DNA of 64,000 bases from an uncultured Chthonomonadaceae bacterium. Lineage in GTDB: Bacteria > Armatimonadota > Chthonomonadetes > Chthonomonadales > Chthonomonadaceae. Location of the stretch: contig CAWFQB010000004.1 in NCBI GenBank assembly GCA_963817895.1, positions 640,001-704,000 of the forward strand, read 5' to 3'. A program made the position numbers and the translations under genes. The notes under the pieces are model-generated. The model did no database searches. It had not been told where the DNA came from and saw nothing but the letters and a program-made list of their open reading frames with translations. Numbering within the stretch: position 1 is the stretch's first letter; every line of letters begins with the position of its first letter. This document shows positions 6,981 to 28,321 of this stretch, piece by piece.

Positions 6981-7763
6981 TCACTGTTTGACGCCAGCGG
7001 ATTCTAGCAGATGAACGGAATCCGTTTGATGCGCTATTCTGGCAGCATCCAGCGCGGTTGTTCCCGCTCTGTTACGTATGGTGGGGTCGGCATGATATTT
7101 CAGCAGGATACGCTCAATCTCCACGAAGTTGCGGCTCGCGACCATCATAAGTGCGGTATCCCCGCTATTGGATATGGCATTAACATCTGCTCCATGCTTC
7201 AGAAGCAGCAGAGTATTGGACGCTTGTTCAAAACACGCGGCGTAAATCAATGGCGTTGTGCCGTACTTATCCTGAACATTAATCCGGGCGGAATGAGCCA
7301 GAAGCATCGAAAGTATGTCTGTGTCCTGAAATGAGGTTGCCTCCATCAACAGAGTGTTGCCGTTTGGACTGGATAGGTTGGGGTCTGCCCCGGCTTCCAG
7401 CAGGGTTTGAATGACAGCCTTCTGCCTGTCCCATACTTCCAATCCGTGCATGTCACGAGAGAAAGCACAATGAGAAACCGCAGATTGTAGAGCCGTTCGC
7501 GTCCTGTAGCGTGAGGTAAGCGCCTGCCATCTTCCACTGCGCAGATACTCCCATGTCTCCCTTACGGAATCGCTGTATTGAGCGTTAGGGTCCGCGCCGT
7601 CGCGCAATGCTTTCAGAACGATACTCGGAGAAGCGTCAATAATCCCAACCCGCAGGTCATTGTTTACGGCTGTCTGCCACTGAACGCGCAGAAAGACAAG
7701 ACTCGATATGACCACAACCAGGCCAATCACGATGAGAGCGGATTGTCGGGAAGACTGTTTCAT
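6981..7763 (-). CDS. Ankyrin repeat protein with N-terminal membrane anchor
   Basis: GADPN, GTTPLIYAA, GDTALMMVA, GTTALDAA repeats; hydrophobic N-terminus. Confidence 0.9.
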   Translation of the reverse strand: MKQSSRQSALIVIGLVVVISSLVFLRVQWQTAVNNDLRVGIIDASPSIVLKALRDGADPNAQYSDSVRETWEYLRSGRWQALTSRYRTRTALQSAVSHCAFSRDMHGLEVWDRQKAVIQTLLEAGADPNLSSPNGNTLLMEATSFQDTDILSMLLAHSARINVQDKYGTTPLIYAACFEQASNTLLLLKHGADVNAISNSGDTALMMVASRNFVEIERILLKYHADPTIRNRAGTTALDAARIAHQTDSVHLLESAGVKQ

Positions 7764-8368
7764 CGGCTGTTCAGAGTTAGCGTGGCATTGACATCATCTG
7801 CTTCTTCCGTTTTTCGCGGCAGTGAAAAGACATAAGGGATTGGGGTATCGGCGCGTAACAGTTGGTCGGCGGGAACGCGCGTTGTATCGCTTGCGGCGCG
7901 TAACAGGGTATGCGGTTCTGCGGCAATTGCGGAGGAGGCGCGGAGCAGTATACGGGCGTCTTGAGGGGCAGCAAGGTCAAAGTCGTAGAGGGCGTACATC
8001 GGGCGGCCATTGATGAGATAGCGCGGCTTTACTCCCTGCCGCGCGGCGACAGCAGGCAAATCTTCCGCTTCAATCCCCAACAAGTCGCTTGTCTCTTCCG
8101 CCGTGCCGAGATCGAGCAGGCGCAGGCGAGTGTTGAGCAGCCATCCGCCCACGCCGCCAATCGCCGTCCCGAAAAACAGCAAGCCCTGCGCGAAAGAGCC
8201 GTTTTCCCCGACGCGCCATCCCGCCGCCCCCTGACCGAGCGCGAGAACTATCTGCAGTATACCGCCGCCAAGCATCAGGGTACAAAACCCCGGCGTTGGA
8301 ATCCCATCCCCGCCGCCCGCAAAGACAAAGGGTTCTTTCGCTTCATCCCACGCCTGCCGCTTGTTCAT
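7760..8368 (-). CDS. 2-TM protein with HTH-like domain and triple-LLR C-terminal tail
   Basis: Two hydrophobic segments; GVKPRYLINGRPMY domain shared with neighbours; LLRAS..LLRAA..LLRAD; 4-bp overlaps with flanking genes. Confidence 0.85.
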   Translation of the reverse strand: MNKRQAWDEAKEPFVFAGGGDGIPTPGFCTLMLGGGILQIVLALGQGAAGWRVGENGSFAQGLLFFGTAIGGVGGWLLNTRLRLLDLGTAEETSDLLGIEAEDLPAVAARQGVKPRYLINGRPMYALYDFDLAAPQDARILLRASSAIAAEPHTLLRAASDTTRVPADQLLRADTPIPYVFSLPRKTEEADDVNATLTLNSR

Positions 8369-9015
8369 TGGCGTTGTATCTCCTGCAAGGGTTGCTCATC
8401 AGAAGTTTCCATCTGAATATAGGAAGGGGCGACGGCAACAGCAGGGGCAACAGTCTGCGCCGCTTCTAAATCGGAACTCGGAACACGCAGCAGTTGTTCG
8501 GGATGTGTGGATATGTCGGCAGTGGCGGGCCGCAGCAAAATCTCCTGCGTGTCGTTTGGGCGCGCGGCGGCTCGCAGCAGGATTTCGGAAGCGTTGGCGA
8601 AGTCAGCGGGATTGTAGTAGTCCATGCCGTTGATGCTCATGCGCGGTTTAATGCCTTTATCTTGCGCGACCTGTGCCAGCATCGTTTCCGGTACGCCGAA
8701 CCGGTCTGAAAGCTGATCGGCAGGTTTAAGTGAAAGAATGTGCTTACGTAAACTGCGCATCCACAGGCCCATGCCGCCGAAGGTCAGCGCATGAATTCCC
8801 GATACGTAAACGAGGACGCCAATTGCGGCAGGCCATGAAAGCGTCAACAGCGCGAACAGCAGCAGCGCAAAACACACGCAGGCCGCGCAAACGCCATAGA
8901 TAATAAACCCAGTTCCGACCCCCTTCAGGAGACGTTCCCAATTGCCGCTTCCCCGCCATTGACTGACGCCACGCTTGTCTTTGCCCCCGTATTTAAATCC
9001 CCATACTTGCGCCAT
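8365..9015 (-). CDS. 2-TM protein with HTH-like domain and triple-LLR tail (paralog)
   Basis: GIKPRMSINGMDYYNPADF; LLRAA..LLRPA..LLRVP. Confidence 0.85.
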   Translation of the reverse strand: MAQVWGFKYGGKDKRGVSQWRGSGNWERLLKGVGTGFIIYGVCAACVCFALLLFALLTLSWPAAIGVLVYVSGIHALTFGGMGLWMRSLRKHILSLKPADQLSDRFGVPETMLAQVAQDKGIKPRMSINGMDYYNPADFANASEILLRAAARPNDTQEILLRPATADISTHPEQLLRVPSSDLEAAQTVAPAVAVAPSYIQMETSDEQPLQEIQRQ

Positions 9016-9026
9016 ACCTCACTCCA

Positions 9027-9587
9027 TCATTCTTGCGCCGCCCGCAGCAACTGTTCCGGTTTTGCTTCCTCTGTCCCGACAGAAGGCCGCAACAGCATAT
9101 CTCGCGTTAGCACAGGCATAGCGGACGGGCGCAGCAGGGTGTTGATGTCGCCAAAATCTCTGGGATTGTAGTAGTCCTGCCCGTTGATGTTTATCGTCGG
9201 GGTTATCTGCTTCTGTGCAGCCCACTCCTGCAAATCAGAAAAATCCATCTGGAACTGACGACACATAGCCTCGGAAGATTTCAAATGCCGTAAACGATAG
9301 CGGGTTCTCAGCATCCATACGCCGCTGCCCCCAAAAGTAAATACCCACATCGGATACATGATGACATCCCCGGCACGGCGAAAGAATTGATCCGCTTCCG
9401 GGGAAAAGAGGGGAGCATGATGCCGATGTGGTCTATTCCATTTTACAATAACGGAGGGAATCGTAAGCACAAACATAGATGCGCAAAACAGCCACACGAG
9501 CGCAAGCCAGACGGGCGGCTTATTCCAGCGGCCTTTGTACATGGGGGCGCCCGCTTCACTGACGCCTATTCGCTTGTAGCCAATCAT
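9027..9587 (-). CDS. 2-TM protein with HTH-like domain and triple-LLR tail (paralog)
   Basis: QITPTININGQDYYNPRDF; LLRPS..LLRPS..LLRAA. Confidence 0.85.
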   Translation of the reverse strand: MIGYKRIGVSEAGAPMYKGRWNKPPVWLALVWLFCASMFVLTIPSVIVKWNRPHRHHAPLFSPEADQFFRRAGDVIMYPMWVFTFGGSGVWMLRTRYRLRHLKSSEAMCRQFQMDFSDLQEWAAQKQITPTININGQDYYNPRDFGDINTLLRPSAMPVLTRDMLLRPSVGTEEAKPEQLLRAAQE

Positions 9588-9602
9588 CCTGCTTCTCCCA
9601 TT

Positions 9603-11141
9603 TTAGTCTGCCAGTTCACCGGTAAAGCCGGTTAAATTCGCTTCCAGTGCGCGGACGGGAACCAGTTTGCCGATGAGCGAATCCAGTGAACGGGTTCCCC
9701 CGGCGGGAACGGTGAAGTTGACCATTTTCTGGGTTCGGGTGTAGCCGCTCAGACGGTTCGGGTCGCGCTGGCTGCGGCCTTCCACCAGTACCTCAAAGAC
9801 CTGTCCGACCTGCGCCTGATTGATTTCCACCGTGATCTGATTCTGGCGGGCAATCAGGGCGTTCAAGCGTTCGATTTTCACTTTTTGCGGAACCTGATTT
9901 TCCATTGCGGCGGCTTTGGTGTTCGGGCGCGGGCTGTACGCGAACATGAACGCCGAGTCGAAGCGGATTTCTTCCACCATTCGCATCGTATTGGCTACTT
10001 GTTCGTCGGTTTCGCCCGGATAGCCGAGCATCATATCCGTCGTGATGGCGATGCCGGGAACGCGGGCGCGAAGGTTGTCCACGATTTCTCGGTAGCGAGC
10101 AACCGTATAGCCCCGGTGCATCTCCAGCAGCAATTCGTCGTCGCCCACTTGCAGCGGCAGGTGTACATGTTCACAGACGTGTTCCAGCCGCCCGATGGCT
10201 TCAATAAGTTCATCGGTAAAATCGCGCGGGTAGGGACTGGTGAACCGGATGCGCTGTATGCCGCGAATGGCATTGATCTGTTCCAGCAATTGCGCGAACG
10301 GAACGCGGCCTTCCGGCAGGTTTTTGCCATACGAGTTGACCGTCTGGCCGAGCAGGGTGATTTCGCGCGTCCCATTTCGCGCCAGCCCTCGATTTCCGCC
10401 AGAACCTCTTCGGTCGGGCGGCTGCGTTCTCGTCCCCGCGTGAGCGGCACGATGCAAAACGTGCAGAACTTGTCGCAGCCGTACATAATCGGCACATGCG
10501 CCTTCAATTTGGCCTTGCGCTCCACAACGCGGGCCGGAATATCCGCCACAATCGCGCCCTTGCGCGGCGGCAATTGCAGCGCGGTCAGCGTGGTCGTTTG
10601 CGTTTTGCCCCGCGACAGTCAAGAGGAAATAGGGATAAGGGATGAGGGATGAGGGATGAGAGGTACACGCCTCTTTTCCGTTCTCCTCTTCTCCTTTTCT
10701 CCTTTTCTCCTCTTCTAAAACAACCTCGCCCGACTTGACGCGCCGGACCATTTCAGGAATGGCGGAAATATTGCCCGTGCCGACGACCATATCTACATGG
10801 GGAGCGCGGCGCTTGATTTCCACGCTTTCCACCTGCGCCATGCAGCCGCACACGCCGATGACCATGTCCGGGCGGTCTCGCTTGATGTCGCGCAGTCGGC
10901 CTAATTCGCTCCATACCTTTTCTTCGGGTTTGGCGCGGACGGAACAGGTATTGAGCAGCACAACATCGGCTTTTTCCGCATCGGCAACCGGCTGGTAGCC
11001 CATAGATTCCATGTACAGCGCGATCTGCTCCGAGTCTTCCTCGTTCATCTGGCAGCCCCACGTCATAATATGATAGCCGGGCGCAGGCGAAGCGGTTTCT
11101 TGACTGGCGGCGTCAGGCAGAGCAGCGGTTTGCTCGAACAA
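9603..11141 (-). CDS. miaB: tRNA methylthiotransferase MiaB (two compensating frameshifts)
   Basis: TWGCQMN, LNTCSVR and GCMAQ in the N-terminal domain; radical [11 protein letters not shown] lies in the alternative frame 10031..10573; C-terminal TRAM domain. Confidence 0.93.
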
Positions 11142-11274
11142 TCGTTTAGTAGGTTAGAAATGCTCACGATAATCCCAATCTTAATGCGTTATGATTACAG
11201 GGCGGCGCGATACAGGGCAGCCGTGCAGGTGAAATCGTATCTGGAAATTCCAACGGCAGCGAAAATGTGAAAGC

Positions 11275-11313
11275 CTTGACAAATCTCACAGGCGAAGTGT
11301 GTGAAATCTCACA
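11275..11313. promoter_or_regulatory. Two tandem CRP-like boxes
   Basis: CTTGA-N6-TCACA (11275-11290) and TGTGT-N6-TCACA (11298-11313) in a divergent intergenic region. Confidence 0.45.
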
Positions 11314-11527
11314 ATCGAAGCCCCTACTTTGGCGCGTATTAACGACTCTAGTATAGCAGATACGCCCTGTGGTTGCCGAATTCCAACATCAGGCGGCGCG
11401 TGACGGTAATAGCCCACTCGCCGCGTTGTATATGCGCTGCAAAAGATGCTAAAATTGTAGAACTTCCCGGTGACTTATGCTGAGAAACGGAAGAACGACG
11501 ACAATGACGACAATGACGACAATGGAA

Positions 11528-12932
11528 ATGACAACTCACGATACGGAACAGTTGCGCGACCAATTGCAGGAGATGCGGCAAAACGGCTGGATTTGCGCGA
11601 ACGCCAACTGCATACCGTGCATGAAATCAGTTCGGCCCTCGCCTCGCAGACGCGATCTCAACTCCATTTTGCGGGAAACCCTGCGCGTGTCGCTGAAAAC
11701 AGTCTGCGCGGATGCCGGCTCGCTCTTGCTGTACGACGCGGAGAAGCGCAAACTGGTATTCGAGTTCGTCGTCGGCAAAACGGAACTCATCGGGATGGAG
11801 ATTGATCCCGAAACCGATTTGAACGGCAAGGCTTCGACGGTATTTCGCACCGGGCAACCGCTCATCACGCTGGACACGATGAAGGAGGGCTACAACCGAC
11901 TTTCGATCAGAAGACCGGCTATAAAACGTCCAGTATCATCACGGTTCCCCTGAAAAACATGGGCGGCAAACCGCTGGGCGTGATGCAGGCGCTCAACAAA
12001 ACGGAGGGGCATTTCGACGAAGAGGATCAGGAACTGCTGGAAATCGTCAGCAGTCTCGCGGCCACTTCAATTGTCAACGCGCGCCTGGCCGAAGAAGCGC
12101 AGCTTGCCGCTGTCGCCCGCGCGGTCGGGGATTTGAGCCACGACATCAAAAACGCCCTGACGCCCGTTGAGTCCATGATAGATACCACTGTAGAAGCCTT
12201 CTTTGAGCCGATGTATCAGGCGCTGGATGAGCATCAAGCCGGAATGGCAGGCGCAATCGCCCAAAGTGACGACGGAGATCATGGAGGTGGTCGAGCCGCT
12301 GCGCGCCTGGTATCCCGAAATGCAGATCTTCCGTAAAGGACGGCTGCGCCGACATTCGCGAAATGGTATCGGAAATCGCCGATTACATCAAGGGTACGCA
12401 GTCTACCTATATGGAGGAAAACGACATTCGGGAGGTGCTGGAAGAGCGGCTGCGGCGGCTGCGCGTGGTGGCAAAACAGCGGCGCATCACCCTGCACCTG
12501 AATGAGAATACGGACGCGAATGAGACGACGGTTCCCGTATTCGCTTTCGACCGGCGGCTTGGTCGGACGGGCCGTTTTCAATCTCATCAACAACGCGATG
12601 GGAGCCATCAACGACGCCGTGAAAAAGAGGACGCTGGAACTGCGCCCCTTCAACATCTGGATACGCGCCTCATCCGTTCAGGAGGGCGAATGGCCGGAAG
12701 GCCGATATTGCCTGCTGGAAGTCCGCGACGACGGGCCGGGCATCCCGCCCAAAGTGCTGGAATCGCTGTTCACGCCACAGGTCATCAGCACCACGATTGG
12801 CGGAACGGGCATCGGCACGCGCTTCGTGAAAAGCGTGGCCGACGCGCACGGCGGCGCGGTCGGCGTGGAAAGCGAACCGGGCAACGGCGCGCGTTTCTGG
12901 CTGAAACTGCCGCTTCGACAGCAAAGGAGTGA
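11528..12932 (+). CDS. GAF-domain sensor histidine kinase (multiply frameshifted; 3' end uncertain)
   Basis: Fragments: GAF (GVMQALNK..FDEED), H-box LSHDIKN, N-box NLINNA, DDGPGI, GTGIG. Confidence 0.8.
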
Positions 12933-12968
12933 AGGAATGAAATATCATTCATCCTCTCATCCTTTGCC

Positions 12969-13669
12969 TCACGCGCTTTGCAGCACCTTGTCTTCCAGCC
13001 CTTTTTTGTTCAGGACGGTCAGGCGATAGCGGCTGTCTACGGAAATCAGATTTTTGGCGCGGTACGCGACCATTACTTTGTTGACGCTTTCGCGGGCCGC
13101 GCCGACGAGATCGGCGATGTCCTGCTGCGTCAGGCGGATGGGGATGAGAATGTTGCCGTCCGGCTGCGGTTCGCCATACAATTCGCAAAACTCCACGATT
13201 TGAAAGGCGACAAGGCCGTACACGTCGAGGGTACAGTGCGCCTGTATTCGCACGTTCGCCAGACGAAGGCGGCGAGCCAGAATCACGCATCATGTTGCGG
13301 GGAAAAGTGGAGCCGTCCTTCATCAGGCGGTCAAAGGCAACGCGGTCAATGCTGATCATCGTGGTCGGTTCCTGCGTGACCACATCGGCGGAGCGTCCGT
13401 TAGAGTCGATCAGGCTCATTTCGCCTACCGTATCCCCGGTGGCGAGCAGGGCGAGAAACACCTGCTGGCCGTCCGGCAGCGAAGTAGAGACACGGACGGT
13501 TCCGTGCTGAATAACGTAAAAAATGTTCGCCCGGATCTTCCTGACTGAAAAGGATCGCGTTGGCTTTGTAAGTGCGTTCGCGCGCGTGTTCGGCAATGAA
13601 CGCCAGTTGGTCGGGAGTCAACCCATCGAAAAGAGCGATTTTGGGCAGGCGATGTGGATCAAGTGCCAT
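12969..13669 (-). CDS. Crp/Fnr family cNMP-binding transcriptional regulator (frameshifted)
   Basis: Phosphate-binding cassette GEMSLIDSNGRSADV; HTH LTQQDIADLVGAARESVNK; spread over three ORF fragments. Confidence 0.88.
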
Positions 13670-13868
13670 GAACGTGCAACCCTCCCCGGACATAAGCGCC
13701 GGAACTGCGATTAAGCGCGTCAAACTGTGAAAAAAGATAAGCAATAGTACGGTGACATGAACGCATTATAGACCGCGCCGCAACACTTGTCAAGCCGATG
13801 CGCCGGGGAAATGCGTTCCTATTATAACCGGCGTTTTGGATGGCGATAAAAGCCTGTTCCTGTAGGTT

Positions 13869-13910
13869 CCCCTTCTCCCAATTTTGGGAGAAGGGGTTAG
13901 GGGTTGAGGG
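13869..13910. repeat. REP-like palindromic element, CCCTCACCCC..GGGAGAGGGG family (reverse orientation)
   Basis: ccccttctcccaattttgggagaagggg hairpin followed by ttaggggttgaggg; related to 28354 and 33411. Confidence 0.75.
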
Positions 13911-13942
13911 CTATTTGGGATAGACAGCAAAGGAGGCATCAA

Positions 13943-14557
13943 ATGCCGGAAGAAATCGAATTGGATATACGGGAACAGCAGGAAAAAATGGAGGAGATGC
14001 ACAGGGAACACGAGGAACATTCCGAGCATCCGCCCTCGCAACTATGGGTGCGCCTGATCTCCCTGAGTACAGCATTTCTGGCCGTGATTGCCGCTGTCGC
14101 CGCGCTGCAATCCGGTTCCCTTGTGAACGAGGCGCTGCTGGAACAGATCAAGGGGACGCAATCGCAGGCGAAAGCGTCGGATAGCTGGACGTATTATCAG
14201 GCGAAGGGACTGAAGCAGAACGGCGCGGAGCAGACCGCCGCGATTTTAGCCGCCAATCCCGCGCAGACAAAGGCGACGGAACATTACCGCGAAGAGGCGA
14301 AACGCTACTGGGAAGAGAAAGAGAAGCAAAAGGCCGACGCGGAAAAGCTGGAGGAGGAGCGCGACAAATCCAACGAAGCCTCCGAACACTTCATGCACAA
14401 GCACCATATCTTCGCCATTTGCGTGACTCTGACGCAGATCGCCATCGCGCTTTCCGCCATCGCCGCCCTGACCCGCCGCAAAGACGTCTGGTACGGAAGT
14501 CTCGCAGTTGGGTTGGTGGGATTATTTTACCTCGTTTATGGCTATGCGCAGCATTGA
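13943..14557 (+). CDS. DUF4337-like membrane protein
   Basis: TM - ASDSWTYYQAK - coiled coil - 2 TM layout; AAGGAGG RBS. Confidence 0.8.
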   Translation: MPEEIELDIREQQEKMEEMHREHEEHSEHPPSQLWVRLISLSTAFLAVIAAVAALQSGSLVNEALLEQIKGTQSQAKASDSWTYYQAKGLKQNGAEQTAAILAANPAQTKATEHYREEAKRYWEEKEKQKADAEKLEEERDKSNEASEHFMHKHHIFAICVTLTQIAIALSAIAALTRRKDVWYGSLAVGLVGLFYLVYGYAQH

Positions 14558-14566
14558 GAAGCGTTT

Positions 14567-15538
14567 TTAGTTTGCAAGGGCGGTGTTGAAGAATGTGGTT
14601 ATTTGGTGGGCGTATTCGGCGGGCGCGACGTTCTGCGCGCTGATATGATCCGCGCCGGGAACATGCCACAAACTTTTGGGCTGTCCGGCGGCCTGCAAAA
14701 GCGCCTGCGTCTCTTCGGGCGGGCAGAGCGTGTCGGAACCGTCTTCAATCAATAGCAAGGGACGCGGCGCGATACGGGCGATTTCTTCAATCGGAGCAAT
14801 GTCGGCGCAGCTTTTGCCGATAAGCGCCTGCCCGATGAGGCGCGTGGGAACGGCAAGGAGGGGAGCGGCTGCGCCCAAAACGGAGCGGAAATGGTTGTTG
14901 ACGGCATGATCCAGTCTGGCGAACGGGCTTTCCGCAACCACGCCCTTTACGTCGGCGCAGCGGGCTGCGCCCATCAGCACAACCACCCCGCCCATAGACT
15001 CGCCAAGCAGCCCGAGAGGAACAGGCTTCATTTCCGGGCGCGATTTCACATATTCTATCGCAGCCAGTAAATCTCCCACTTCGCGGTAGCCGAGCGTGCA
15101 GCGCGTGCCTTCGCTTTCGCCCCTTGCCCGAAAATCGAACAGCAGCACGGCAAAATGGGCTTTATGCAGGATCGCGGCGGTGGCAAGCAGATCGGTTCGG
15201 TCGCTGTCCACGCCGTGACAGCAGACAATCACGCCTTTGGGCTTACCGTCAGTCGGAATAAACCAGCCATGCAGCGTCAGTTTGTCCGGCGCGGCAAAGA
15301 CGATATTCTCATATTTCAGGCTATGCGCCCGTGGCGTCACCATAAGTTTGTGCTGTTTGGGCCGAACCGTTTCCCATGCCAGCCTGCCGCATATTATCAG
15401 ATAAGCCGAGACATTCAGCAGCAGAAGTATCAGCACCCTCCATCGAGAGCGTTTGCGCGGTCCCGGCAACCGGCGCGTCCTCGCTTTCAAGAACGGCAGG
15501 TTCCCATTCTCTTCCTCCGCATCAGTAATCCTGTCCAT
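14567..15538 (-). CDS. Alpha/beta hydrolase with N-terminal TM
   Basis: CCHG, FDFRARGES, nucleophile GESMGG, Asp and His (GADH). Confidence 0.9.
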   Translation of the reverse strand: MDRITDAEEENGNLPFLKARTRRLPGPRKRSRWRVLILLLLNVSAYLIICGRLAWETVRPKQHKLMVTPRAHSLKYENIVFAAPDKLTLHGWFIPTDGKPKGVIVCCHGVDSDRTDLLATAAILHKAHFAVLLFDFRARGESEGTRCTLGYREVGDLLAAIEYVKSRPEMKPVPLGLLGESMGGVVVLMGAARCADVKGVVAESPFARLDHAVNNHFRSVLGAAAPLLAVPTRLIGQALIGKSCADIAPIEEIARIAPRPLLLIEDGSDTLCPPEETQALLQAAGQPKSLWHVPGADHISAQNVAPAEYAHQITTFFNTALAN

Positions 15539-15594
15539 CCTGAAAAATCCTGTTCATCCTGTCTATTTTCCGTTGTTTGTCTACCGTCTACCGT

Positions 15595-16011: not shown

Positions 16012-16148
16012 GATGGCAGCAATCCTTTCAGGAATCTACGCTTATATCGAATCGCGTCCCTTGATTGCTCAATGCGCCCCGCGAAGTGGAGCCATGCAGG
16101 AATTCCATTGCGAAGCGCGAATAAACATGCAGAAAAGGAGACAGCATC

Positions 16149-18703: not shown

Positions 18704-18735
18704 TTCCTTTTGGCTAAACAGTTTGAGATTATAAT

Positions 18736-21594
18736 ATGGCACCTAAACTTACACTAACAAACCTCTTTTGTCTCCTGTTTAGCATTGCGTTGTTGCTTGC
18801 GAGTAGCATTATGAACGCCGCGCCCGTCACACAGGGACGCGAACGCCTGCTCATGGACAGTGGCTGGAAGTTCCATTTAGGCGATCCGGCGGGCAATGCG
18901 ACGCAAACACAGACCACGCGATTGCAATGGCGCTACAAGTCCGTAGCGCAGGGACAGGAGAATTTGGAAACGCCTGCCGCTCCCGATTTCCAGATGGATG
19001 AGGGCTGGAAAGACGCTGGCGTTTCGCAGGACGTGTTCAACGGGCGGCGCGGCTTCGCGTGGTATCGCGCCACGCTTCCCAACGTACCCGGCGTGACGCG
19101 GGTTCTGCATTTCGAGGGCGTGGATGACAACGCGACGGTTTATGTCAACGGCAAAAAGCTGCTGCATCACGAGGGCTACGACGAGCCGTTCAATGTGCCG
19201 CTTGCGGGCGTGTGGAAAGAGGGCGGGCCAAACGTCGTTGCTGTGCTGGTGGAAAATACGGCGGGCGCGGGCAGCATCGGCGCGGTTGGATTTCAGGAGA
19301 GCGAAGTCGCCGTAGACGAAACGTATTCCAAACCCGGTTTTCAGGACAGCGACTGGCGCAATGTCCACCTGCCGCATGACTTTGTCGTAGAAGGGAAGTT
19401 CACGCCCACTGCGGATGCCAGTCATGGGTCGCTGCCGACGGGAATCGGCTGGTATCGCAAAACGTTCACGGTTCCCGCTTCGGATAAAGACCGCGCCCTG
19501 TGGGTGGACTTCGACGGCATTTACCGCAACGCTTATATCTGGCTGAACGGCAAACTGCTCGGCAACCATAAGAGCGGCTACATCGGGGCGCATTACGACA
19601 TCAGCAGATTTGTGAATTACGGCGGTACGAACACGCTGGCAGTACGGGCGGACGCGCGGGCGCAGGAGGGCTGGTGGTACGAAGGCGGCGGCATCTACCG
19701 CCACGTCTGGCTGAACAAGGCCAATGTTGTCCATATTTTGCCGAACAGCATATACGTATCCTCACGGGTACAGGGCGACAGCGCAAACCCTGAAAGCGCG
19801 AATGTGCAAGTCAAATTTAAAATGTCAAGTTGGTATTATGGGGGGCCGCGCCGCATCAGCTATCAAATTCGCGCGGAAATACGAGCATCTGACAATTCTG
19901 ATACCAAAATTGTTGCCCGTGCTAGCGATTCTGGCACTGAAGCGGATGAGGAACCCGGATCAGTTCACAATCTGCAATTCACCATTCCGCATCCTCGTCT
20001 CTGGTCTCTCGAACAGCCAAATCTCTATCAAGTCGTCATCCGCATTCACCTCGACGAATACGATAATGCAGGAACAGGTAAGGCACGCGACGTTCTGGAT
20101 ACTACTTCGACGACATTTGGCATCCGCACCATCAAATTCGACGCGCAGAAGGGCTTTTTCCTGAACGGCAAGCCGGTCAAGATACAGGGGACGTGCAACC
20201 ATCAGGACTTTGCGGGCGTGGGCATCGCCATGCCGGACAGTCTGCTGGAATGGCGCGTGAAGAAACTCAAGGCAATGGGCAGCAACGCCTATCGTATGTC
20301 GCACAACCCGCCCGCGCCCGAACTGCTCGATGCCTGCGACCGGTTGGGCATGCTGGTCATGGACGAAACGCGGCATTTAGGCGACACCTACCGGCCTAAA
20401 ACCAGTCGTGGCACGCCCGTCAGCGATCTTGGCGACCTGAAAGAAATGGTGATGCGCGACCGCAACCATCCGAGCATCATTCAATGGTCACTGTTCAATG
20501 AGGAGGGCTTGCAGGGCAGTGACGAGGGCGCGCGTATCTTCAAAGCCATGAAGGAAGCCACGCTCGCGCTCGACCCGACCCGCCCCACGACGGGAGCCAT
20601 GAACGGCGGGTGGGGATACGGTATTACGTTTGTTGAAGATTTGCAGGGCATCAACTACGCCCCCGGAGCTTATGAGGGCTTTCACCAGAAGTTTCCCGAC
20701 ATGCCTTTGTTCGGCAGCGAAACGGCAAGCGCGGTGAATACGCGCGGCGAATACGTCACCGACCCGCAAAAAGGCTATGTCAGCGCATATGACGTGAACG
20801 CGCCGAGTTGGGGGCAAACGGCAGAAACGGCGTGGAAAGCTATCGGCACACGCGAATACGTAGCAGGCGGGTACGTGTGGACGGGATTCGATTACAAGGG
20901 CGAACCCACTCCCTACGGCTGGCCGTGCATCAACTCGCACTTCGGAATCATGGACGAGTGCGGCTTTCCCAAAGACACGTACTACTATTACCTCAGTTGG
21001 TGGGGCGACAAACCCGTCGCGCATATCCTGCCGCACTGGAATTGGCCGGGAGATGAGGGCAAACCTAAAGACGTGTGGATTCACAGCAACGCCGACCGGG
21101 TGGAACTGTTCCTGAACGGCGCGAGTTTGGGCGCAAAAGACATGCCGCGTTTGGGACACCTGCAATGGAGCGTCCCCTACGCCCCCGGCCAACTGGAAGC
21201 AAAGGGCTACAAAGACGGCAAAACTATTGTAACCGATGTGGTAGAAACGACGGGCAAGGCCACGCAAATCCGCCTCAAACCGGATCGCAAAACCATGACC
21301 GCGAACGGCGAAGAGGTCATCATGGTAGAAACGGAACTGCTCGACGACAAAGGCCGCGTGGTTCCCGATGCCGACAACGAAGTAATGTTTGAGGTGACGG
21401 GCGCGGCGCATATCGGCGGCGTCGGCAACGGCGATCCGAGCAGCCACGAACCCGACAAAGCCAACAAACGCCACGCCTTTCACGGCCTGTGCATGGCCGT
21501 CGTACAGGCATCCGAGCAGCCCGGTTCCGTGCAGGTCACAGCCACGTCCCCCGGCCTGAAACCCGCCAACGCCACCTTACAGACAAAGAAGTGA
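18736..21594 (+). CDS. GH2 beta-galactosidase-like enzyme, secreted, with extra N-terminal sugar-binding domain
   Basis: GIGWYRK, CNHQD, AYRMSHNP, RDRNHPSIIQWSLFNEE, GYVWTGFDYKGEP. Confidence 0.93.
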   Translation: MAPKLTLTNLFCLLFSIALLLASSIMNAAPVTQGRERLLMDSGWKFHLGDPAGNATQTQTTRLQWRYKSVAQGQENLETPAAPDFQMDEGWKDAGVSQDVFNGRRGFAWYRATLPNVPGVTRVLHFEGVDDNATVYVNGKKLLHHEGYDEPFNVPLAGVWKEGGPNVVAVLVENTAGAGSIGAVGFQESEVAVDETYSKPGFQDSDWRNVHLPHDFVVEGKFTPTADASHGSLPTGIGWYRKTFTVPASDKDRALWVDFDGIYRNAYIWLNGKLLGNHKSGYIGAHYDISRFVNYGGTNTLAVRADARAQEGWWYEGGGIYRHVWLNKANVVHILPNSIYVSSRVQGDSANPESANVQVKFKMSSWYYGGPRRISYQIRAEIRASDNSDTKIVARASDSGTEADEEPGSVHNLQFTIPHPRLWSLEQPNLYQVVIRIHLDEYDNAGTGKARDVLDTTSTTFGIRTIKFDAQKGFFLNGKPVKIQGTCNHQDFAGVGIAMPDSLLEWRVKKLKAMGSNAYRMSHNPPAPELLDACDRLGMLVMDETRHLGDTYRPKTSRGTPVSDLGDLKEMVMRDRNHPSIIQWSLFNEEGLQGSDEGARIFKAMKEATLALDPTRPTTGAMNGGWGYGITFVEDLQGINYAPGAYEGFHQKFPDMPLFGSETASAVNTRGEYVTDPQKGYVSAYDVNAPSWGQTAETAWKAIGTREYVAGGYVWTGFDYKGEPTPYGWPCINSHFGIMDECGFPKDTYYYYLSWWGDKPVAHILPHWNWPGDEGKPKDVWIHSNADRVELFLNGASLGAKDMPRLGHLQWSVPYAPGQLEAKGYKDGKTIVTDVVETTGKATQIRLKPDRKTMTANGEEVIMVETELLDDKGRVVPDADNEVMFEVTGAAHIGGVGNGDPSSHEPDKANKRHAFHGLCMAVVQASEQPGSVQVTATSPGLKPANATLQTKK

Positions 21595-21619
21595 CAGGTA
21601 AATCGGGCGAGCAGTAGCA

Positions 21620-21648
21620 TTGACAGAGTAGATATTTGCCGTTATAAT
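21620..21648 (+). promoter_or_regulatory. Perfect-consensus sigma70 promoter
   Basis: TTGACA-N17-TATAAT, about 70 bp upstream of the cyclase pair. Confidence 0.8.
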
Positions 21649-21720
21649 GCTCTTATATCCCTCTATTTGCAGGGACATAGAAGTTATAACTACACAACTT
21701 CTGCTTGATGAGGCGCTGAC

Positions 21721-22293
21721 ATGACTACTGACATAGAAATCACCGCGCGGCCACATACCTCCGCGCCAACTCGTCTCATGGCAATTGTGATCGCGGATAT
21801 AGTTGGTTCCACGCGTTTAAGTTACGAAGCAGGCGATCTGGCATTGCATACGGGAATTGGTCAACTGCTTGCGCGTGTCTCTCATCTTTTGGAGATTCAT
21901 TCAGGCCGATTAATCAAGGATATAGGCGATGGCTTCTTCGCCGTGTTCGAGGATTCTGCCGCTGCCACAGAGTTTGCTGCCGAACTGCTGCAAACTCTTG
22001 ATCGGGAGCCTATTCTCGTTGGAAATAATAAGATTAGTTTAAGGATGGGATTGCATGTAGGGAGAGGGCAACTGCAACAAACTTCGTATGGGGTGGATGT
22101 GTTCGGGGCATCCGTAGAATTAGCGGCCCGCTTGAATACATACGCGCCTCCCGGGCAACTCGTTGTGTCGAAAACCGCTTTTGACACATTGCCCGATAAT
22201 CTGCAAGCCTCCTTTCAGCCAATAGGAGAACTTTTCCTCAAGGGCGTCGCAACTGCAATTCAGGCGTATGTGTTGACAAAGACGGGAGAGTAG
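21721..22293 (+). CDS. Stand-alone class III adenylate/guanylate cyclase domain protein
   Basis: ADIVGST, IKDIGDG, LRMGLHVG, DVFG..VELAARL, LKG. Confidence 0.9.
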   Translation: MTTDIEITARPHTSAPTRLMAIVIADIVGSTRLSYEAGDLALHTGIGQLLARVSHLLEIHSGRLIKDIGDGFFAVFEDSAAATEFAAELLQTLDREPILVGNNKISLRMGLHVGRGQLQQTSYGVDVFGASVELAARLNTYAPPGQLVVSKTAFDTLPDNLQASFQPIGELFLKGVATAIQAYVLTKTGE

Positions 22294-22299
22294 TCTGCA

Positions 22300-22950
22300 A
22301 TGCCGCCTGATACTGTGGACGTTCCCGAAGTAGCGACAGAAGCTATTGTTATTGTAGATTTAGTCGAGTCGGCGTCTACGAGTAATTTATTTGGATGGTA
22401 TGCGGTTGGCCGCTCTTTGATGCGTGACCTGCGTGGTATGATCCATGAAGTAGGCGATGCGCGGGGGCTTCAGTGCCTGAAGAGTATAGGCGATGGGTAC
22501 TTGCTTGCCTTTCGAGCTAACTCCTCTGCGGAGTTAGCTGTTCTTCATGCCATAGAAAGCGCCTTGCTGCTTCTGGACTTGGTCTCGAAGCGCAATCGCG
22601 CGGTTCCAGAAGAACGTGTTATTAATTTGCGATTAGCGGTTCATTTTGGTGAAGTGGATGTTATCGCCAACGACCGCGAAGGGCCGCATGTCACGTATGC
22701 TTTTCGTCTCGAATCCATTGATAGAGATGCGCTTGCCGACGCGTTCAACCCAATTCCTCCTGAAGATTTGCCCTTGCGAAACTATATCCTGTGCAGTGAA
22801 GAGGCAGCCGGTATTCTGGAAAGGCGTTCCTCCCTGTACGCGATTACGCGCATTGGATTGTTAAAGTTACAAGGATTCCCCGGCTGGCGCGAAGTCTTTT
22901 TGGTACTGCCGATACATAGCAATGTATACACGCCTGAGTCTGCTATTTGA
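22300..22950 (+). CDS. Second, divergent class III cyclase domain protein
   Basis: VDLVES, LKSIGDG, LRLAVHFGEV, DREG..VTYAFRL, LQG. Confidence 0.85.
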   Translation: MPPDTVDVPEVATEAIVIVDLVESASTSNLFGWYAVGRSLMRDLRGMIHEVGDARGLQCLKSIGDGYLLAFRANSSAELAVLHAIESALLLLDLVSKRNRAVPEERVINLRLAVHFGEVDVIANDREGPHVTYAFRLESIDRDALADAFNPIPPEDLPLRNYILCSEEAAGILERRSSLYAITRIGLLKLQGFPGWREVFLVLPIHSNVYTPESAI

Positions 22951-23131
22951 TTAATGTACCTCTTGAAGACATCGGCAGGTTCCAGAGAACGGAAAAGCAA
23001 GGCGCATCGCGTTGTACCCGCGTCTATGGAACCTGCCGCGCAATTTTCCGAGTAACGCCGCGTGGTTCCCGACGCCGACAACGTAGGTGTTCATCGCGGA
23101 AAACTGCAATGAGCCAAAGAAGGCATAAACC

Positions 23132-23616
23132 ATGTCTGTTACGGATAAATTGCGTTCTGCTGTTATGAAGGTACAACAAGGAAGCCGCGTACAACGAGAG
23201 TTGTACGTTGCTATACCGTTTGAAGCAGCGTTTGCAATGTGTCTGGAAGCGGTTCAGGCGATCTCCGGCTGTTCGATTAAAGCGCAGAGTCCACAGGCAG
23301 GTGTAATATGGGCTATTACGCGCGTAAACTGGCAAACTTTCGGGGATACGATTACATTGAAGCTCACCGCGTTGGATGATGGGCAAACGCGGGTAGATAT
23401 TAGCAGCAACACAACTCTGTATCAATTCATAGATTATGGACGTAACGCGGGACACATACGTGCGATTACAAGCCATTTGAATAGGGAGCAGGAAACGCTG
23501 TTGCGCCACGCCGATAAACCGGAAGCTGCCGGGGTAACGCTGTTGCGCGCCGCGCAGGCGCAAACGTCTACTGCGCCGCGCGAATTGCTGCCTCTGCTGA
23601 CAATGAGAACGTTTGA
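23132..23616 (+). CDS. DUF1499-like alpha/beta protein with triple-LLR tail (1-bp deletion near 23591)
   Basis: TFGDTI..TRVDISS..DYGRN core; LLRHA..LLRAA..ELL; adding one G gives ELLRSADNENV* ending at 23616 (uncorrected ORF ends 23671). Confidence 0.7.
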
Positions 23617-23707
23617 TGGGCGTTGGCATAGCAGAAGGCATACTGTAGACCTCTTTCATAAGTCCTTGTAAGCGCGGCAGGTCTTATCTCATTCAAGAGA
23701 CTTATGA

Positions 23708-25132
23708 CAGTATCTTTGCACTTTTGGGTTCAGGCCGCCAAGAGTAGCTGCACCTGCTCTGGCGTGGTTCCTTGTTGGTAGTGGTCGAATACCCATTGCA
23801 GCAGATTGTTCTGGTGTTGTGCCTGTATTTGGCGTCTCATGTGTCCGATACTGACACTTTGCTGTCTGTTCTCAACCCTCGGCTTCGGTAGAGAGGCGCG
23901 TTGTTCTTCCAGAAACACGTAGGCCAGACACGCAAGCGTCCAGAAGCGCACGACGGCAACATCGCTCATCATCTGGTAGTGGTCGGTGCCGAAGAGTTCC
24001 TTGACATCGGCAAAGAACGTCTCGATGTGCCAGCGGACGGCGATAATGGCAACAAGCGTTGGGGTGTCCGCGTCTACCAGACTGCTGACGTAGAAGGTTG
24101 TCTTGTGCGGCGGATCCTCCAGGTGACGCTTCACGCACAGCACTTGACACGCGCCTAACTTGCGCACCAGCGTTCGCCGCCGATGCACCCAGAGAACCTG
24201 CCCGCCCGTGTCCGAAGGCCAGACCACCTTCTCGAACTGCTCGTCCGTCACAGATGCGGCGTAAACCGACAGCTTTTGCCAGACTTTGTTTTCCTGCGCG
24301 TCCGTCACGCGCAGACTGCGGTTGCAGGCTAGACCGCCGCTGAGGTCGAAGCCGCGTTGCTTGGCCGCTTTCCACAGCGCTTTGTTCATGTACCACGCAT
24401 CTACCAGCGCATGCGTGTGCGTGTCGGGGGCAGGGACAAAGGTTTGCACACACGAAACCGCCATCGCGACCTTGCTCACGAACGGCGTTTCTTGCGCTTG
24501 GCACACGTTCTTGGTCCGGTACATACGTGGCAGCAAGGGACAACGCCTGCCAACAAGCACATACAACGCTTGGAACAGGCTATGCCCGCTCACCCGCTTG
24601 CCGTGTGTGCTGCTGTGGTGACGCCCTAAACCGCGCATCGTTTTGGCATACGGCTTGGCATGGGTGCTGTCATCCATAATCAGGTAACCGGTGAGCAGGG
24701 TTGCCTTCGGACGACCGGGCGCTTTGCCGCGCTGTTGTCGTTGGTGTTGATGCGCGTACTGAACGCTTGCTTGCTGCTGTTGCCGAAAACGGGCTTGCCA
24801 CTGCTCTGCTAAAGCGGCTTCGCTCCACGGCGCACGGGCAAAGAAGCGCGACAGTCCGGCTAAAGTGACACTGCATTGCACTTTGTGCAACATTCCTGAG
24901 AGTGTGCGTCGGCCTTCGACTTGCATGAGCGCCAGCAGTACGGTTTCGAGGTACTTGAACTGAGGCTTGCTGAACACGCAACGAAATGCGGCTAGGAATT
25001 GACAAAGTGCCTGACTTGCGCAGATAATAGGAGTGGGCATGGTTTTCCTCGGGAATGGATGGTTGGCACTTTCCATTTTCCACAAAGAAAGCCATGTCCG
25101 CTACCCCTTCTTCAAAAAGTGCAAAGATACTG
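23708..25132 (-). mobile_element. Complete IS701-like insertion sequence
   Basis: Perfect 18-bp TIRs CAGTATCTTTGCACTTTT (23708-23725) and AAAAGTGCAAAGATACTG (25115-25132); flanking direct repeat TTATGA (alternatively 19-bp TIR with TATG). Confidence 0.92.
23730..25085 (-). CDS. DDE transposase (IS701/DDE_5-like)
   Basis: LIMDDST, LVDAWY, RWHIETFFADVKE; single intact ORF between the TIRs. Confidence 0.9.
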   Translation of the reverse strand: MWKMESANHPFPRKTMPTPIICASQALCQFLAAFRCVFSKPQFKYLETVLLALMQVEGRRTLSGMLHKVQCSVTLAGLSRFFARAPWSEAALAEQWQARFRQQQQASVQYAHQHQRQQRGKAPGRPKATLLTGYLIMDDSTHAKPYAKTMRGLGRHHSSTHGKRVSGHSLFQALYVLVGRRCPLLPRMYRTKNVCQAQETPFVSKVAMAVSCVQTFVPAPDTHTHALVDAWYMNKALWKAAKQRGFDLSGGLACNRSLRVTDAQENKVWQKLSVYAASVTDEQFEKVVWPSDTGGQVLWVHRRRTLVRKLGACQVLCVKRHLEDPPHKTTFYVSSLVDADTPTLVAIIAVRWHIETFFADVKELFGTDHYQMMSDVAVVRFWTLACLAYVFLEEQRASLPKPRVENRQQSVSIGHMRRQIQAQHQNNLLQWVFDHYQQGTTPEQVQLLLAA

Positions 25133-25165
25133 TTATGAAAGAGATCTTGTGTATGAGGAGACAGA

Positions 25166-25675
25166 ATGGAACCAAAAACCGAACTGGAACTGTGCCGGAT
25201 GCTTCTGATTATGCACCTGCGCGGGTTTGTGTATGAACTGCGGCAACTGCCTGCCGATAAATGGGATTGGACGCCCGATCAGGCCGCGCCCACTGCCCGA
25301 ACGGTTGCGGTACATGCGTGGCAATGGCTGATTTGCGACCGACAGCACATTGAGGAACCGGACGCGACAAAACACGCCGATGTGCCGGATGCGCCCCACG
25401 ACCCGGAAGCGTTTTGCGCCGCGTTCGAGGCGGAAACGGAGAACTGGAACCAACTATTGCGCAATCTGACGCCGGAACAACTGGACAGCCCCCGCAAACA
25501 GTTCAATTTTGCAGACTCCAGGATGAACGTGCGCGGCTTTATCGGCCATATCATTCAGAACACCATTTACAAGCACGGACAATTCAGCACCCTGTTTTTC
25601 GCGCTCGGCTGCGATGGCACGGAACCTTACGACGCGCCGTTCCCCAATCCCATCTATGCGGAGCATTGCCGCTGA
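25166..25675 (+). CDS. DinB-family protein
   Basis: WDWTP..VAVH and HIIQNTIYKHGQ; GAGGAG RBS. Confidence 0.8.
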   Translation: MEPKTELELCRMLLIMHLRGFVYELRQLPADKWDWTPDQAAPTARTVAVHAWQWLICDRQHIEEPDATKHADVPDAPHDPEAFCAAFEAETENWNQLLRNLTPEQLDSPRKQFNFADSRMNVRGFIGHIIQNTIYKHGQFSTLFFALGCDGTEPYDAPFPNPIYAEHCR

Positions 25676-25678
25676 AAA

Positions 25679-26533
25679 TCACGCTTGCGTTTCTTCTTGT
25701 TCAGATTGGGACGCCCGCAATAACTGTTGGGGGCGTTCCGTGTTTGTGGGGTGAGTGGCGCGTAAGAGAGTTTCGGGTTGGGAGGTAGGCATATCGGCTG
25801 CGCGAAGAAGGGTTTCCGGCACTTCCTGCCGCAGCAGACGGGCTTCCATAATGGGAGCAAGTTCCAGCGCCTTCCAGCTTATGCGCTGATGTTGGGCGTA
25901 TGTGCAGATGGTTGCGCCGAGGGCTTGCATCTGTCGCAGGGAATTGCGATTGCCGATGAGCGCGAGCGCCTGTAACGTGCGCAGGGGCAATGTCTCGTCA
26001 AAGTGTTCGCCGGAATACAGCGAAGGCACAGCCAGCCTCCAAAGCATCTCCTGCATCCTGCCGTTCAACAACCCGGCGTCCGCTTCCCTAACATGTTCGA
26101 GCAGCCGGGTAATAGCGCGTATAACTTCGGGATGCTTGCCCCATGCGAACCGCGTTCCCTGTATCAAGGCGGGCAGAACGCGCAGATCGTCGGTTTGGGT
26201 CAGAGCATAAGTGGCGAGACGCTGCCCCGGCCCCGGATCGTAGATAAAGGCGCCAAGTAATACCAACGCCATACTGATAGGGAATAAGGCGGCAACAAGC
26301 GAAGCACATCCTAAAAAAATTGCGAACGCGCCAAAGAAAATGAGAAGATACCCTGCAATTTTGGGGCGCAACGTTTCTTCCGTCGCAATGTATTCCAGCA
26401 ATGCCGTAATCGTACGCGGGTCAAGTTCGTACAGTTCGGGTTCGGAAGGCCAGTCGCGTTTCAAGTGATGCAGTCGGCGTATCAACTCTTTTGCGCCGGA
26501 TTGTCCTATTACTTTGGGTAGGTTCTGCGGCAT
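25679..26533 (-). CDS. 2-TM + HEAT-like protein with triple-LLR tail
   Basis: ALTQTDDLRVLPALI; LLRAA..LLRAT..LLRAS; paralog of 27473..28321. Confidence 0.85.
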   Translation of the reverse strand: MPQNLPKVIGQSGAKELIRRLHHLKRDWPSEPELYELDPRTITALLEYIATEETLRPKIAGYLLIFFGAFAIFLGCASLVAALFPISMALVLLGAFIYDPGPGQRLATYALTQTDDLRVLPALIQGTRFAWGKHPEVIRAITRLLEHVREADAGLLNGRMQEMLWRLAVPSLYSGEHFDETLPLRTLQALALIGNRNSLRQMQALGATICTYAQHQRISWKALELAPIMEARLLRQEVPETLLRAADMPTSQPETLLRATHPTNTERPQQLLRASQSEQEETQA

Positions 26534-26576
26534 TGCGGTTCCTGGAAGCGCGGCGTTGGCGCAGGGAGAAAACAGT

Positions 26577-27476
26577 TCAGGCGGGCATGTCGGCGTTGTC
26601 GGCACTGGTGGCGCGAAGCAATTCTCCCGCTGAAGTATCCTGTCGTTCCTCAGACGAACGCAAGAGGCTTTCAACGGCTTCGGGTTTGCGCTCAGGCCGC
26701 AGCAACACGTCTTTGCCCTCCTTCTTCGCGATACGCTCTTGAATTACCTGCGCGCAACGTTCGGCAACTACTCTCGGCTCATTCAGAAGCGACCCGTTTT
26801 CGAGAAAGCGTTCTACGTCAGGTAAGTCTCGTTTGTCGCCTACCTGCTCCAGCAGACGCAGTATCGAAAAAGCGCGTTCCGGCGTGTAAGCAGGTGTCTT
26901 AATTTCTGTAGAATTCATGGGAAACAGAAAACTGCGCATCCGTTCGCGTTGGCGCGTATTCAAGGCGTCTACATTCGCAGTCTGCATCAGGGGGAGCAGG
27001 CGCACAACGGCCTCATTTACCGACAGGATAAGGCTGGAATAAACATGGCCGGGATGCTCATCGGCATCTTTAAGTTCAAGTATGGGGCCGAGCATAATTG
27101 GGTCGCAGGTTTTCAGGATGTAGCGAGCAAGCTGTTGTTCAACTTTAATATCTTGACGCGCATAAGCGGTAAATAGGCTCGTTATCAGCATAAGAGCGCC
27201 GACGATGAGAAATGAACACCAGATAAGCGTAATCGGACCGCCAAAGATTATCCGTAGTTGGATTACAACGAATGAAATAAAGAATGAGTAAACGGTCATG
27301 TGTGCCAGAGCGATAAAATGGCTGGTATTGCGCCGTACCCGCGCCACGAGTACCCGGAACTCATCAGGAGTGAGCAGGGGAGTTTCGGCATGTTGTTCGG
27401 CTGCGGATGGAGATGACGGCTGCATGGCGTAGTATTCCGCGCGTAATCGTGATTCCTGTTGAGGGTAGAAACTCAC
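26577..27476 (-). CDS. 2-TM + HEAT-like protein with triple-LLR tail
   Basis: LEQVGDKRDLPDVERF; LLRPE..LLRSS..LLRAT. Confidence 0.85.
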   Translation of the reverse strand: MSFYPQQESRLRAEYYAMQPSSPSAAEQHAETPLLTPDEFRVLVARVRRNTSHFIALAHMTVYSFFISFVVIQLRIIFGGPITLIWCSFLIVGALMLITSLFTAYARQDIKVEQQLARYILKTCDPIMLGPILELKDADEHPGHVYSSLILSVNEAVVRLLPLMQTANVDALNTRQRERMRSFLFPMNSTEIKTPAYTPERAFSILRLLEQVGDKRDLPDVERFLENGSLLNEPRVVAERCAQVIQERIAKKEGKDVLLRPERKPEAVESLLRSSEERQDTSAGELLRATSADNADMPA

Positions 27477-28321
27477 AATTCCCGTTCCTCTCCCGTACTG
27501 GCACGCAGGAGTTGTCCCGTCGGTTCGGGAGTTGTGGCGTGAGCGGCGCGAAGAAGCGTGTCCGGTTGATTGGTGGGCGTATTAGCGGTGCGCAGGAGGG
27601 TTTCGGACACTTGCTGACGTTTCAGGCGGGCTTCCATGAGCGAGATGAGTTCTCGCACGATCTCTAAAGCAGAGACACCGCCGTATAACCACATAGAATT
27701 ATGGGCGAGTTGCTTCAAGCGCGTCAGCGTGGTTTGGCTGCCGATGGCGGCCAGAATGTGCAGCGTGAGCAGCATGGTTTCACTGGATCTGGTTGACGAC
27801 AGACCTTGCATCTCAACGTTAATTATCCAGAGTTGCTTTTGCTCCGCGTCGTCCAGCAGTCCGACGTGGTCTTCCGTGACGTGTTCGAGCAGGCGCAGTA
27901 TGGCGGCGCGTATCTGCGGATGCCGTCCCCAGGTGTGGCGCGTCGCCTGTATAAGCGTGGGCAGTGCGGCAACGTCGTTGGTTTGCGTGAGGGCGTAGAC
28001 GGCGTAGGGGTACTGTCTTGCGGCAAGGACGAACGGGAGCAGCAAGAGGGCTTCACAGGTGGCAACCCACAACCCCAGGGCGAAATCCCCCTTTAATGCG
28101 CCGGCTGCCAGAGCGAACAGCACCAGTGACCGGGCGGTAAGCGCAAGACTATGGTGTGTTTTTGCGCGGGAAGCGATGTAGTCCTGCAAGGCTTCGATTT
28201 GCAACGGAGTAAGTTGACGGAGCAGGGGTTCGTCCGCCCAGCGCCAGCCTCGGCGGGAAAGCAAGCGCATGATGCGTTTGGCTTCTCGATGCGGATGCGA
28301 GTTAAATTTGATGGCGGGCAT
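27473..28321 (-). CDS. 2-TM + HEAT-like protein with triple-LLR tail
   Basis: ALTQTNDVAALPTLI; LLRTA..LLRAA..LLRAS. Confidence 0.85.
   Translation of the reverse strand: MPAIKFNSHPHREAKRIMRLLSRRGWRWADEPLLRQLTPLQIEALQDYIASRAKTHHSLALTARSLVLFALAAGALKGDFALGLWVATCEALLLLPFVLAARQYPYAVYALTQTNDVAALPTLIQATRHTWGRHPQIRAAILRLLEHVTEDHVGLLDDAEQKQLWIINVEMQGLSSTRSSETMLLTLHILAAIGSQTTLTRLKQLAHNSMWLYGGVSALEIVRELISLMEARLKRQQVSETLLRTANTPTNQPDTLLRAAHATTPEPTGQLLRASTGEEREL

Follow-up and report, generated by a model that had tools for sequence, protein, structure and literature searches.

A triple-LLR C-terminal tail on otherwise different proteins of one order of Armatimonadota, and a candidate TPR-AAA+ reader

Short motifs that act as portable tags, each with its own dedicated reader, are familiar from eukaryotes; to our knowledge, few have been described in bacteria. 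The MIT domain of Vps4 reads the MIM tails of ESCRT-III proteins, and C-terminal export-sorting signals of the PEP-CTERM and LPXTG types consist of a motif followed by a transmembrane helix and a basic cluster. Here we describe a C-terminal tail of about 35 residues, built on three leucine–leucine–arginine (LLR) motifs at fixed spacing, which was noticed in a stretch of 64,000 nucleotides from an uncultured Chthonomonadaceae bacterium (contig CAWFQB010000004.1, positions 640,001 to 704,000), referred to below as the window. The original prediction, that this is a portable module belonging to no named domain, is supported, and the module is far more widespread than the seven proteins on which it was first seen.

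Should the reader proposed below hold, the likeness to the Vps4 MIT–MIM pair would lie in Leu/Arg C-terminal motifs on membrane-associated proteins, a helical N-domain and a classical AAA+ ATPase. The differences are that the candidate's N-domain is of the TPR type, with no MIT match in either of the two proteins scanned, that the tagged proteins are not PspA/ESCRT-III proteins, and that a three-residue core occurs three times in a proline-rich coil in place of one amphipathic helix. Bacterial Vps4-like loci with TPR and six-transmembrane-helix neighbours are noted in PMC11237479, and PMC3581485 presents SHOCT (PF09851) as a short, mostly C-terminal module on many unrelated bacterial domains, its function unresolved. 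The tail is likewise a short C-terminal module on many unrelated domains, but PF09851 matches none of 63 tails at E-values up to 1, and the tail is a predicted coil with three repeats found in one order only, in which few genomes have SHOCT (10 of 68). In the Chlamydomonas pyrenoid, several copies of the Rubisco-binding motif mark soluble and membrane proteins that are otherwise unrelated, giving them a shared address (PMC7673724). The tail has in common with it a short motif, multiple copies and unrelated carriers; the pyrenoid motif is [D/N]W[R/K]xx[L/I/V/A], eukaryotic and requiring a terminal or side-chain carboxyl, whereas the tail has fixed spacing and 2–53 residues after its last motif. 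For one of the tail-bearing bodies only, class A below, PBS-lyase-type HEAT-like proteins (PF13646, PF03130) offer a further comparison: both are all-helical solenoids with HEAT_2 matches, but the class A solenoid has an inserted membrane hairpin and the additional tail.

Abundance, anatomy and range of the tail

In the window's own assembly (G000, 81% complete), a regular expression for the triple motif matched 44 of 7317 predicted proteins, against none or one in each of 40 within-protein shuffles; the motif is not due to chance. A hidden Markov model (HMM) of the tail identified 87 open reading frames (ORFs) in this genome, with no match to a reversed decoy at the same threshold. The carriers, which make up more than 1% of the genes of this genome, are otherwise different and are mostly membrane proteins. 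The repeat unit is L-[L/V]-R-[A/P]-[S/A], the consensus around the third motif is T-P-P-E-Q-L-L-R-A, and in the 78 of 87 tails that could be parsed the arginine is conserved at 100, 100 and 97% in the first, second and third motifs, respectively. Synonymous codon variation is spread over all motif positions, and because the arginine is conserved while synonymous codons vary, selection acts on the protein; the freely varying codons also rule out an origin of the tail as a DNA repeat or recombination site.

The claim that spacer lengths are nearly invariant while spacer sequences are divergent was borne out beyond the window; the spacers are also proline-rich. In the 257 of 277 tails from this genome, its relatives and database matches that could be parsed with a regular expression permitting 7–19 residues, spacer 1 measured 10–12 residues in 247 and spacer 2 measured 12–13 in 240, in a set that includes top-scoring HMM matches and hence leans towards regularity. 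The lengths of the two spacers are uncorrelated (r 0.05). Extra repeats are present in 30 of these tails, a fourth in 29 and a fifth in one. From the first motif to the third the tail covers about 32 residues, and the distance from the last motif to the stop has a median of 7 residues (range 2–53).

No family in Pfam, NCBIfam or PHROGs corresponds to the tail. The best Pfam E-value among the 63 of 87 tails scanned was 0.02, with at most two members matching any one family, while NCBIfam returned a single match (E 0.008) and the best PHROGs E-value was 0.044. The ESM Atlas gave no usable match to the tail alone, a scan of viral contigs gave one weak match of 23 residues, and no description of the tail was found in a search of the literature that reached few subscription papers. 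Yet the tail profile is found in 2905 protein clusters among 1.84 billion representatives. Among the best 150 of these clusters the tail lies within 15 residues of the end in 139 and within 50 in all, and one of the 150 (P0012) looks like an unrelated repeat. The atlas assigns the tail clusters to the phylum Armatimonadota, and close relatives are annotated as hypothetical proteins of Chthonomonas. Profiling of 401 genomes of the phylum, with 18 candidates scored per genome, placed the tail in 49 of 53 relatives from the order (32 of 32 in the family of the window, 17 of 20 in a second family and none of one in a third) and returned two marginal matches in the 347 other genomes; the tail is confined to one order. 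Within the order, no credible tail was found at E-values up to 1 in G024, G264, G025, G019 or G021, and the four tail-less genomes tested for class A bodies gave weak generic HEAT matches only. A quick tree, from an unfinished search, nests G024, G264 and G025 inside a tail-bearing family, which suggests secondary loss of the tail.

Carrier bodies and predicted topology

BLAST clustering divides the tail proteins into a HEAT class of 47 (class A), a class of 16 short proteins with two transmembrane helices (class B), the three helix–turn–helix (HTH)-like proteins of the window (class C) and singles; the bodies bearing tails include HEAT, short two-helix, HTH-like, Spo0M and DUF1499-like types. 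The two homologues of the Spo0M protein, itself one of the singles, retain all or part of the tail. No homology was detected by hhalign among the three large body classes (probability no higher than 1.2%), and tails of the class B type occur on non-homologous bodies; the tail is portable. The labels given to the bodies of the window proteins are weaker than the motif itself. In support of the HEAT-like label there are a fold model and, for the window proteins, Pfam HEAT matches below the cut-off; HEAT_2 matches occur among class A bodies genome-wide, some of them above it. The HTH-like label corresponds to a match to HTH_17 (E 0.016) in one of 11 members, and the DUF1499-like label to a match below the cut-off (E 0.005). 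Class C proteins also occur at full length in both tail-bearing families.

In this genome every one of the 51 class A HEAT bodies is tailed (47 in full, four with degenerate tails), and in 90 of 93 class A proteins the first motif lies exactly 17 residues past a conserved cysteine of the last HEAT helix. Three relatives (L057:1246-2499, L064:1297-2535 and L080:1321-2520) have one more HEAT unit after the tail, which resembles the last repeat of the family. A cassette-like array of about ten class B genes or fragments occupies L023:7900-18600 (G000:C4, approximately 40–51 kb); there the ends of the class B genes are conserved, the membrane-spanning middles are variable, and ankyrin and small unrelated genes are interspersed. 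At L039:1092-3767 (G000:C11) a single ORF contains both an alcohol-dehydrogenase-like region and a class A membrane-HEAT-tail module, possibly through fusion or through an artefact of assembly.

The fold model of a class A protein is built of helices throughout (mean predicted local distance difference test score, pLDDT, 85.6), and the modelled body has the helical solenoid fold of HEAT-like repeat proteins. Its structural matches were HEAT/ARM solenoids only; as the best of them is generic (Z 8.3; CpcE/F were middling at Z 6.7), no function transfers from it. In two AlphaFold models the bodies are confident and the tail is a low-confidence coil (pLDDT 52–61 and 45–58), so that the tail is predicted to be disordered; the first motif closes the last HEAT helix in one model, and docking of the tail on its own HEAT domain was seen in neither of these monomers. 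Mean counts of lysine and arginine at 40 hairpins (2.8 before, 1.0 in the loop, 2.9 after) predict, by the positive-inside pattern, that the tail faces the cytoplasm. The tail and the residues beyond it are hydrophilic, and the motif is not followed by the C-terminal combination of transmembrane helix and basic cluster found in PEP-CTERM and LPXTG signals. A role in export sorting, which had been among the functions first suggested, is unlikely because the tail is hydrophilic and predicted to be cytoplasmic.

A candidate reader and competing explanations

We consider the tail to be probably a protein-docking tag, in which three L-[L/V]-R-[A/P] anchors, 13–16 residues apart, would dock the carriers on a shared reader, their fixed spacing perhaps mirroring neighbouring binding pockets on an oligomeric partner. 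The best candidate for that reader, at a probability of roughly one in three, is an order-specific TPR-AAA+ ATPase; this candidate, together with the exclusion of several alternatives, is what is new in the present analysis. The protein, of about 430 residues, surfaced while another ATPase was being profiled and is present in five of five tail-bearing genomes (L239:2619-3896 in G005, L240:2251-3552, L241:2202-3584 on the minus strand in G001, L242:2261-3559 and L243:945-2252). In each of two of the proteins scanned, Pfam recognised a TPR domain at the N terminus and a single AAA domain; a partly hydrophobic insert lies within the TPR domain. A model of the N-domain located the ATPase in 62 of the order's 68 genomes, including both other genomes of the window's genus, always in single copy except for two copies in G002. 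Outside the order it was found in none of 347 genomes, in a search that used a model built from five in-order sequences, an E-value cut-off of 1e-18 and eight candidates scored per genome. Across the 401-genome sample, tail and ATPase occur together in 48 genomes, the tail only in two (G000 and G291) and the ATPase only in two (G025 and G019), and one genus, represented by G024 and G264 (96% and 92% complete), is without both.

Because TPR domains are peptide-binding modules and AAA+ proteins assemble into rings, one ring could bind several anchors. Our working model is that the TPR domains of the ATPase ring would engage several anchors at once and that the ATPase would then pull on the tagged proteins or on clients bound to them, leading to extraction or remodelling at the inner face of the membrane, with the variable bodies conferring specificity, much as ESCRT-III tails recruit Vps4. 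In its fullest and distinctly speculative form, the model would give the order its own Vps4/Msp1-like membrane remodelling or extraction system, in which a dedicated TPR-AAA+ ATPase reads a genetically encoded triple-LLR tag. As many as about ninety membrane adaptors or clients, all evolving fast, would bear this tag, and the system might deliver to the UBact proteasome. If true, this would be a compact, transplantable tag that recruits an AAA+ machine to membrane proteins. Naming a candidate reader turns an unexplained motif into a question of binding between two proteins, in an order with Chthonomonas among the relatives.

A number of observations weigh against the ATPase as the reader. It is kept in two tail-less genomes, G025 (99% complete, with a score typical of its family) and G019 (97%), and was not found in the tail-bearing G000 (81%), G291 (91%) and G409 (64%). 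Since any order-specific gene would give most of the profile, what is informative is one joint loss of tail and ATPase, within a single genus; moreover, the five-sequence in-order model, the cut-off and the eight candidates per genome mean that distant orthologues of the ATPase may have been missed, and the candidate came after about ten others had been tried. Tail genes have no neighbour family in common, and the 59 tail clusters showed no enriched paralogue family besides themselves.

A tentative but serious alternative, which all of the tail evidence fits equally well, keeps the multivalent docking tag and gives it another reader. This could be some other hub or lattice protein specific to the order, or a widely distributed machine, for example ARC (the UBact-proteasome ATPase), ClpC or FtsH. 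The Pup-ligase family is present in every tail-bearing genome tested, a tail gene adjoins ARC in 7 of 41 loci, and UBact contains the sequence SDLLKR. However, the Pup ligase is found in 230 of the 401 genomes, tail-less ones included, the UBact-proteasome system is present in about 180 genomes besides all of the tail-bearing ones, and of the seven genes next to ARC six represent a single inherited orthologue, the seventh being another tail gene; UBact/ARC was set aside as a partner because its profile does not discriminate and the ARC adjacency is mostly that one orthologue. In G000 the UBact-proteasome operon lies at G000:C14:118016-130149 (part of it in L176) and encodes ARC, Dop/PafA-like ligases, UBact and the alpha and beta subunits. 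Upstream of the operon is a divergent HEAT gene with a variant tail, after which comes a Trp/Arg-rich helix that may be amphipathic.

Other specific partners fared no better. SspB is the type of an adaptor with a ClpX-binding tail, and the zinc domain of ClpX is disfavoured as the reader here, PF06689 not being found in four tail-bearing genomes (G022, G023, G026 and G029) that are 96–100% complete, although a very divergent domain could be missed by this search. A second short frame (74–318 amino acids) with a ClpX-type zinc domain, apart from ClpX, occurs in G013, G303, G317, G322 and G336. DivIVA is patchy (32 of 68 genomes of the order); it is not in the window's genus and was not found in G000, G001, G002 or G005. 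ClpS is in 64 of 68 genomes, tail-less ones among them, and its linkage to tail genes is not enriched: of 40 ClpS loci, 6 have a tail gene as a neighbour, three of them selected because the adjacency was already known and the other three from one genus. PspA and Band_7 proteins occur in five of five genomes, tailed and tail-less alike; no PspA match was found among the 56 and 7 tail proteins scanned, the PspA genes being separate. For two other AAA+ genes of G000, close orthologues were confined to the genus (five genomes tested), and a MoxR operon hosts one tail cluster only.

That the tails need no outside reader, and instead associate with one another in register, or with a HEAT domain on a neighbouring member of the family, to form a membrane-attached network, is unlikely. 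The constant placement of the first motif in class A, 17 residues after the conserved cysteine and, in one model, at the end of the last HEAT helix, would suit such an arrangement, as would the additional HEAT unit after the tail in three relatives, and fixed spacing would hold different tails in register. Against this, the tail is not docked on a HEAT unit in either monomer model, the spacers are proline-rich and divergent, and the number of repeats rises to four or five in 30 of 257 tails.

Somewhat less probable still is a function other than protein docking: anchoring to a lipid surface, serving as a site of proteolysis or modification, or signalling a pause in translation. Two aliphatic residues and an invariant arginine could bind a membrane surface or mark a cleavage site, and the motifs are packed into about 32 residues that end close to the stop. 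None of these functions, however, needs two independently fixed spacers; proline often follows the arginine; and the gene downstream is co-oriented in 50 of 74 cases, against 72% genome-wide, which shows no preference. As to modification, the arginine kinase domain of McsB (PF00217) was found in none of 41 genomes of the family and not in G000, which excludes the phospho-arginine degron and, with it, that route to the proteolysis tag raised in the original prediction. The same domain is present in 22 of 24 genomes of the sister family, and ClpC of G000 appears to retain the motifs that we take to form the phospho-arginine pocket. Finally, mimicry of the RNA polymerase beta flap-tip helix, with the repeats serving as a trap at the membrane for sigma region 4 or NusA, is very improbable: the tail profile does match TPEEKLLRAI of the flap-tip chimera PDB 3t72, in keeping with the third-motif consensus, but not significantly (E 0.16), the tail is without the Ile-Phe pair and often has proline after the arginine, and the idea fails because the host flap tip, AEERLIIAIFG in five of five genomes of the order checked (L180-L184), has LII and not LLR.

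The tailed genes of the window and their neighbours

In a six-frame scan of the window, the exact pattern LLR-x10/11-LLR-x12-LLR was found in six ORFs only, all on the minus strand. Three encode class C proteins, with a membrane hairpin, a small HTH-like domain and the tail: 7760..8368 (202 amino acids; motifs at 7940-7948, 7898-7906 and 7853-7861), 8365..9015 (216 amino acids; motifs at 8572-8580, 8530-8538 and 8485-8493), the stop of which overlaps the start of the next ORF, and 9027..9587 (186 amino acids; motifs at 9129-9137, 9087-9095 and 9042-9050), immediately downstream of a miaB-like gene. The other three encode class A proteins, in which a HEAT-like solenoid with an inserted membrane hairpin precedes the tail: 25679..26533 (284 amino acids from the ATG; motifs at 25802-25810, 25760-25768 and 25715-25723), 26577..27476 (299 amino acids; motifs at 26697-26705, 26658-26666 and 26613-26621) and 27473..28321 (282 amino acids from the ATG; motifs at 27590-27598, 27548-27556 and 27503-27511). 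The spacers are of 10 and 12 residues in ORF 26577 and of 11 and 12 in the other five, and 4–39 residues lie between the last LLR and the stop. In agreement with what had been noted for the window, the last LLR is preceded by Q in five of the six and by E in one, and A or P follows LLR in 15 of the 18 motifs.

The original count of seven tailed ORFs stands for these six; the seventh, a soluble DUF1499-like protein encoded on the plus strand at 23132..23671, has two motifs (23498-23506 and 23540-23548) and a third cut by a frameshift (LL at 23585-23590), reading LLR-x11-LLR-x12-LL before the frame is lost at about 23591. Its orthologue in G001 (L105:1360-1878; 48% identity over 119 amino acids) ends in an intact LLR-x11-LLR-x17-LLR, and for this reason we regard the tail architecture of ORF 23132 as real. 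A homologue search with the ORF 23132 protein returned the identical sequence only, and contigs from public runs covered mainly the adjacent transposase, none bridging the frameshift.

Frameshifts are numerous in the assembly from which the window comes. The miaB-like (9603-11141), acyl-CoA synthetase-like (29661-31401) and MoxR (40981-41988) genes of the window look frameshifted or split, as do clpB, clpC and ftsH outside it, and these are probably assembly errors. Upstream of ORF 23132, two tandem genes for stand-alone adenylate/guanylate cyclase domains occupy positions 21721-22950 of the window. Right downstream of the same ORF a DDE transposase (Pfam DDE_Tnp_1, DDE_5) is inserted at 23730-25085, and near-identical pieces of it are present in four public runs.

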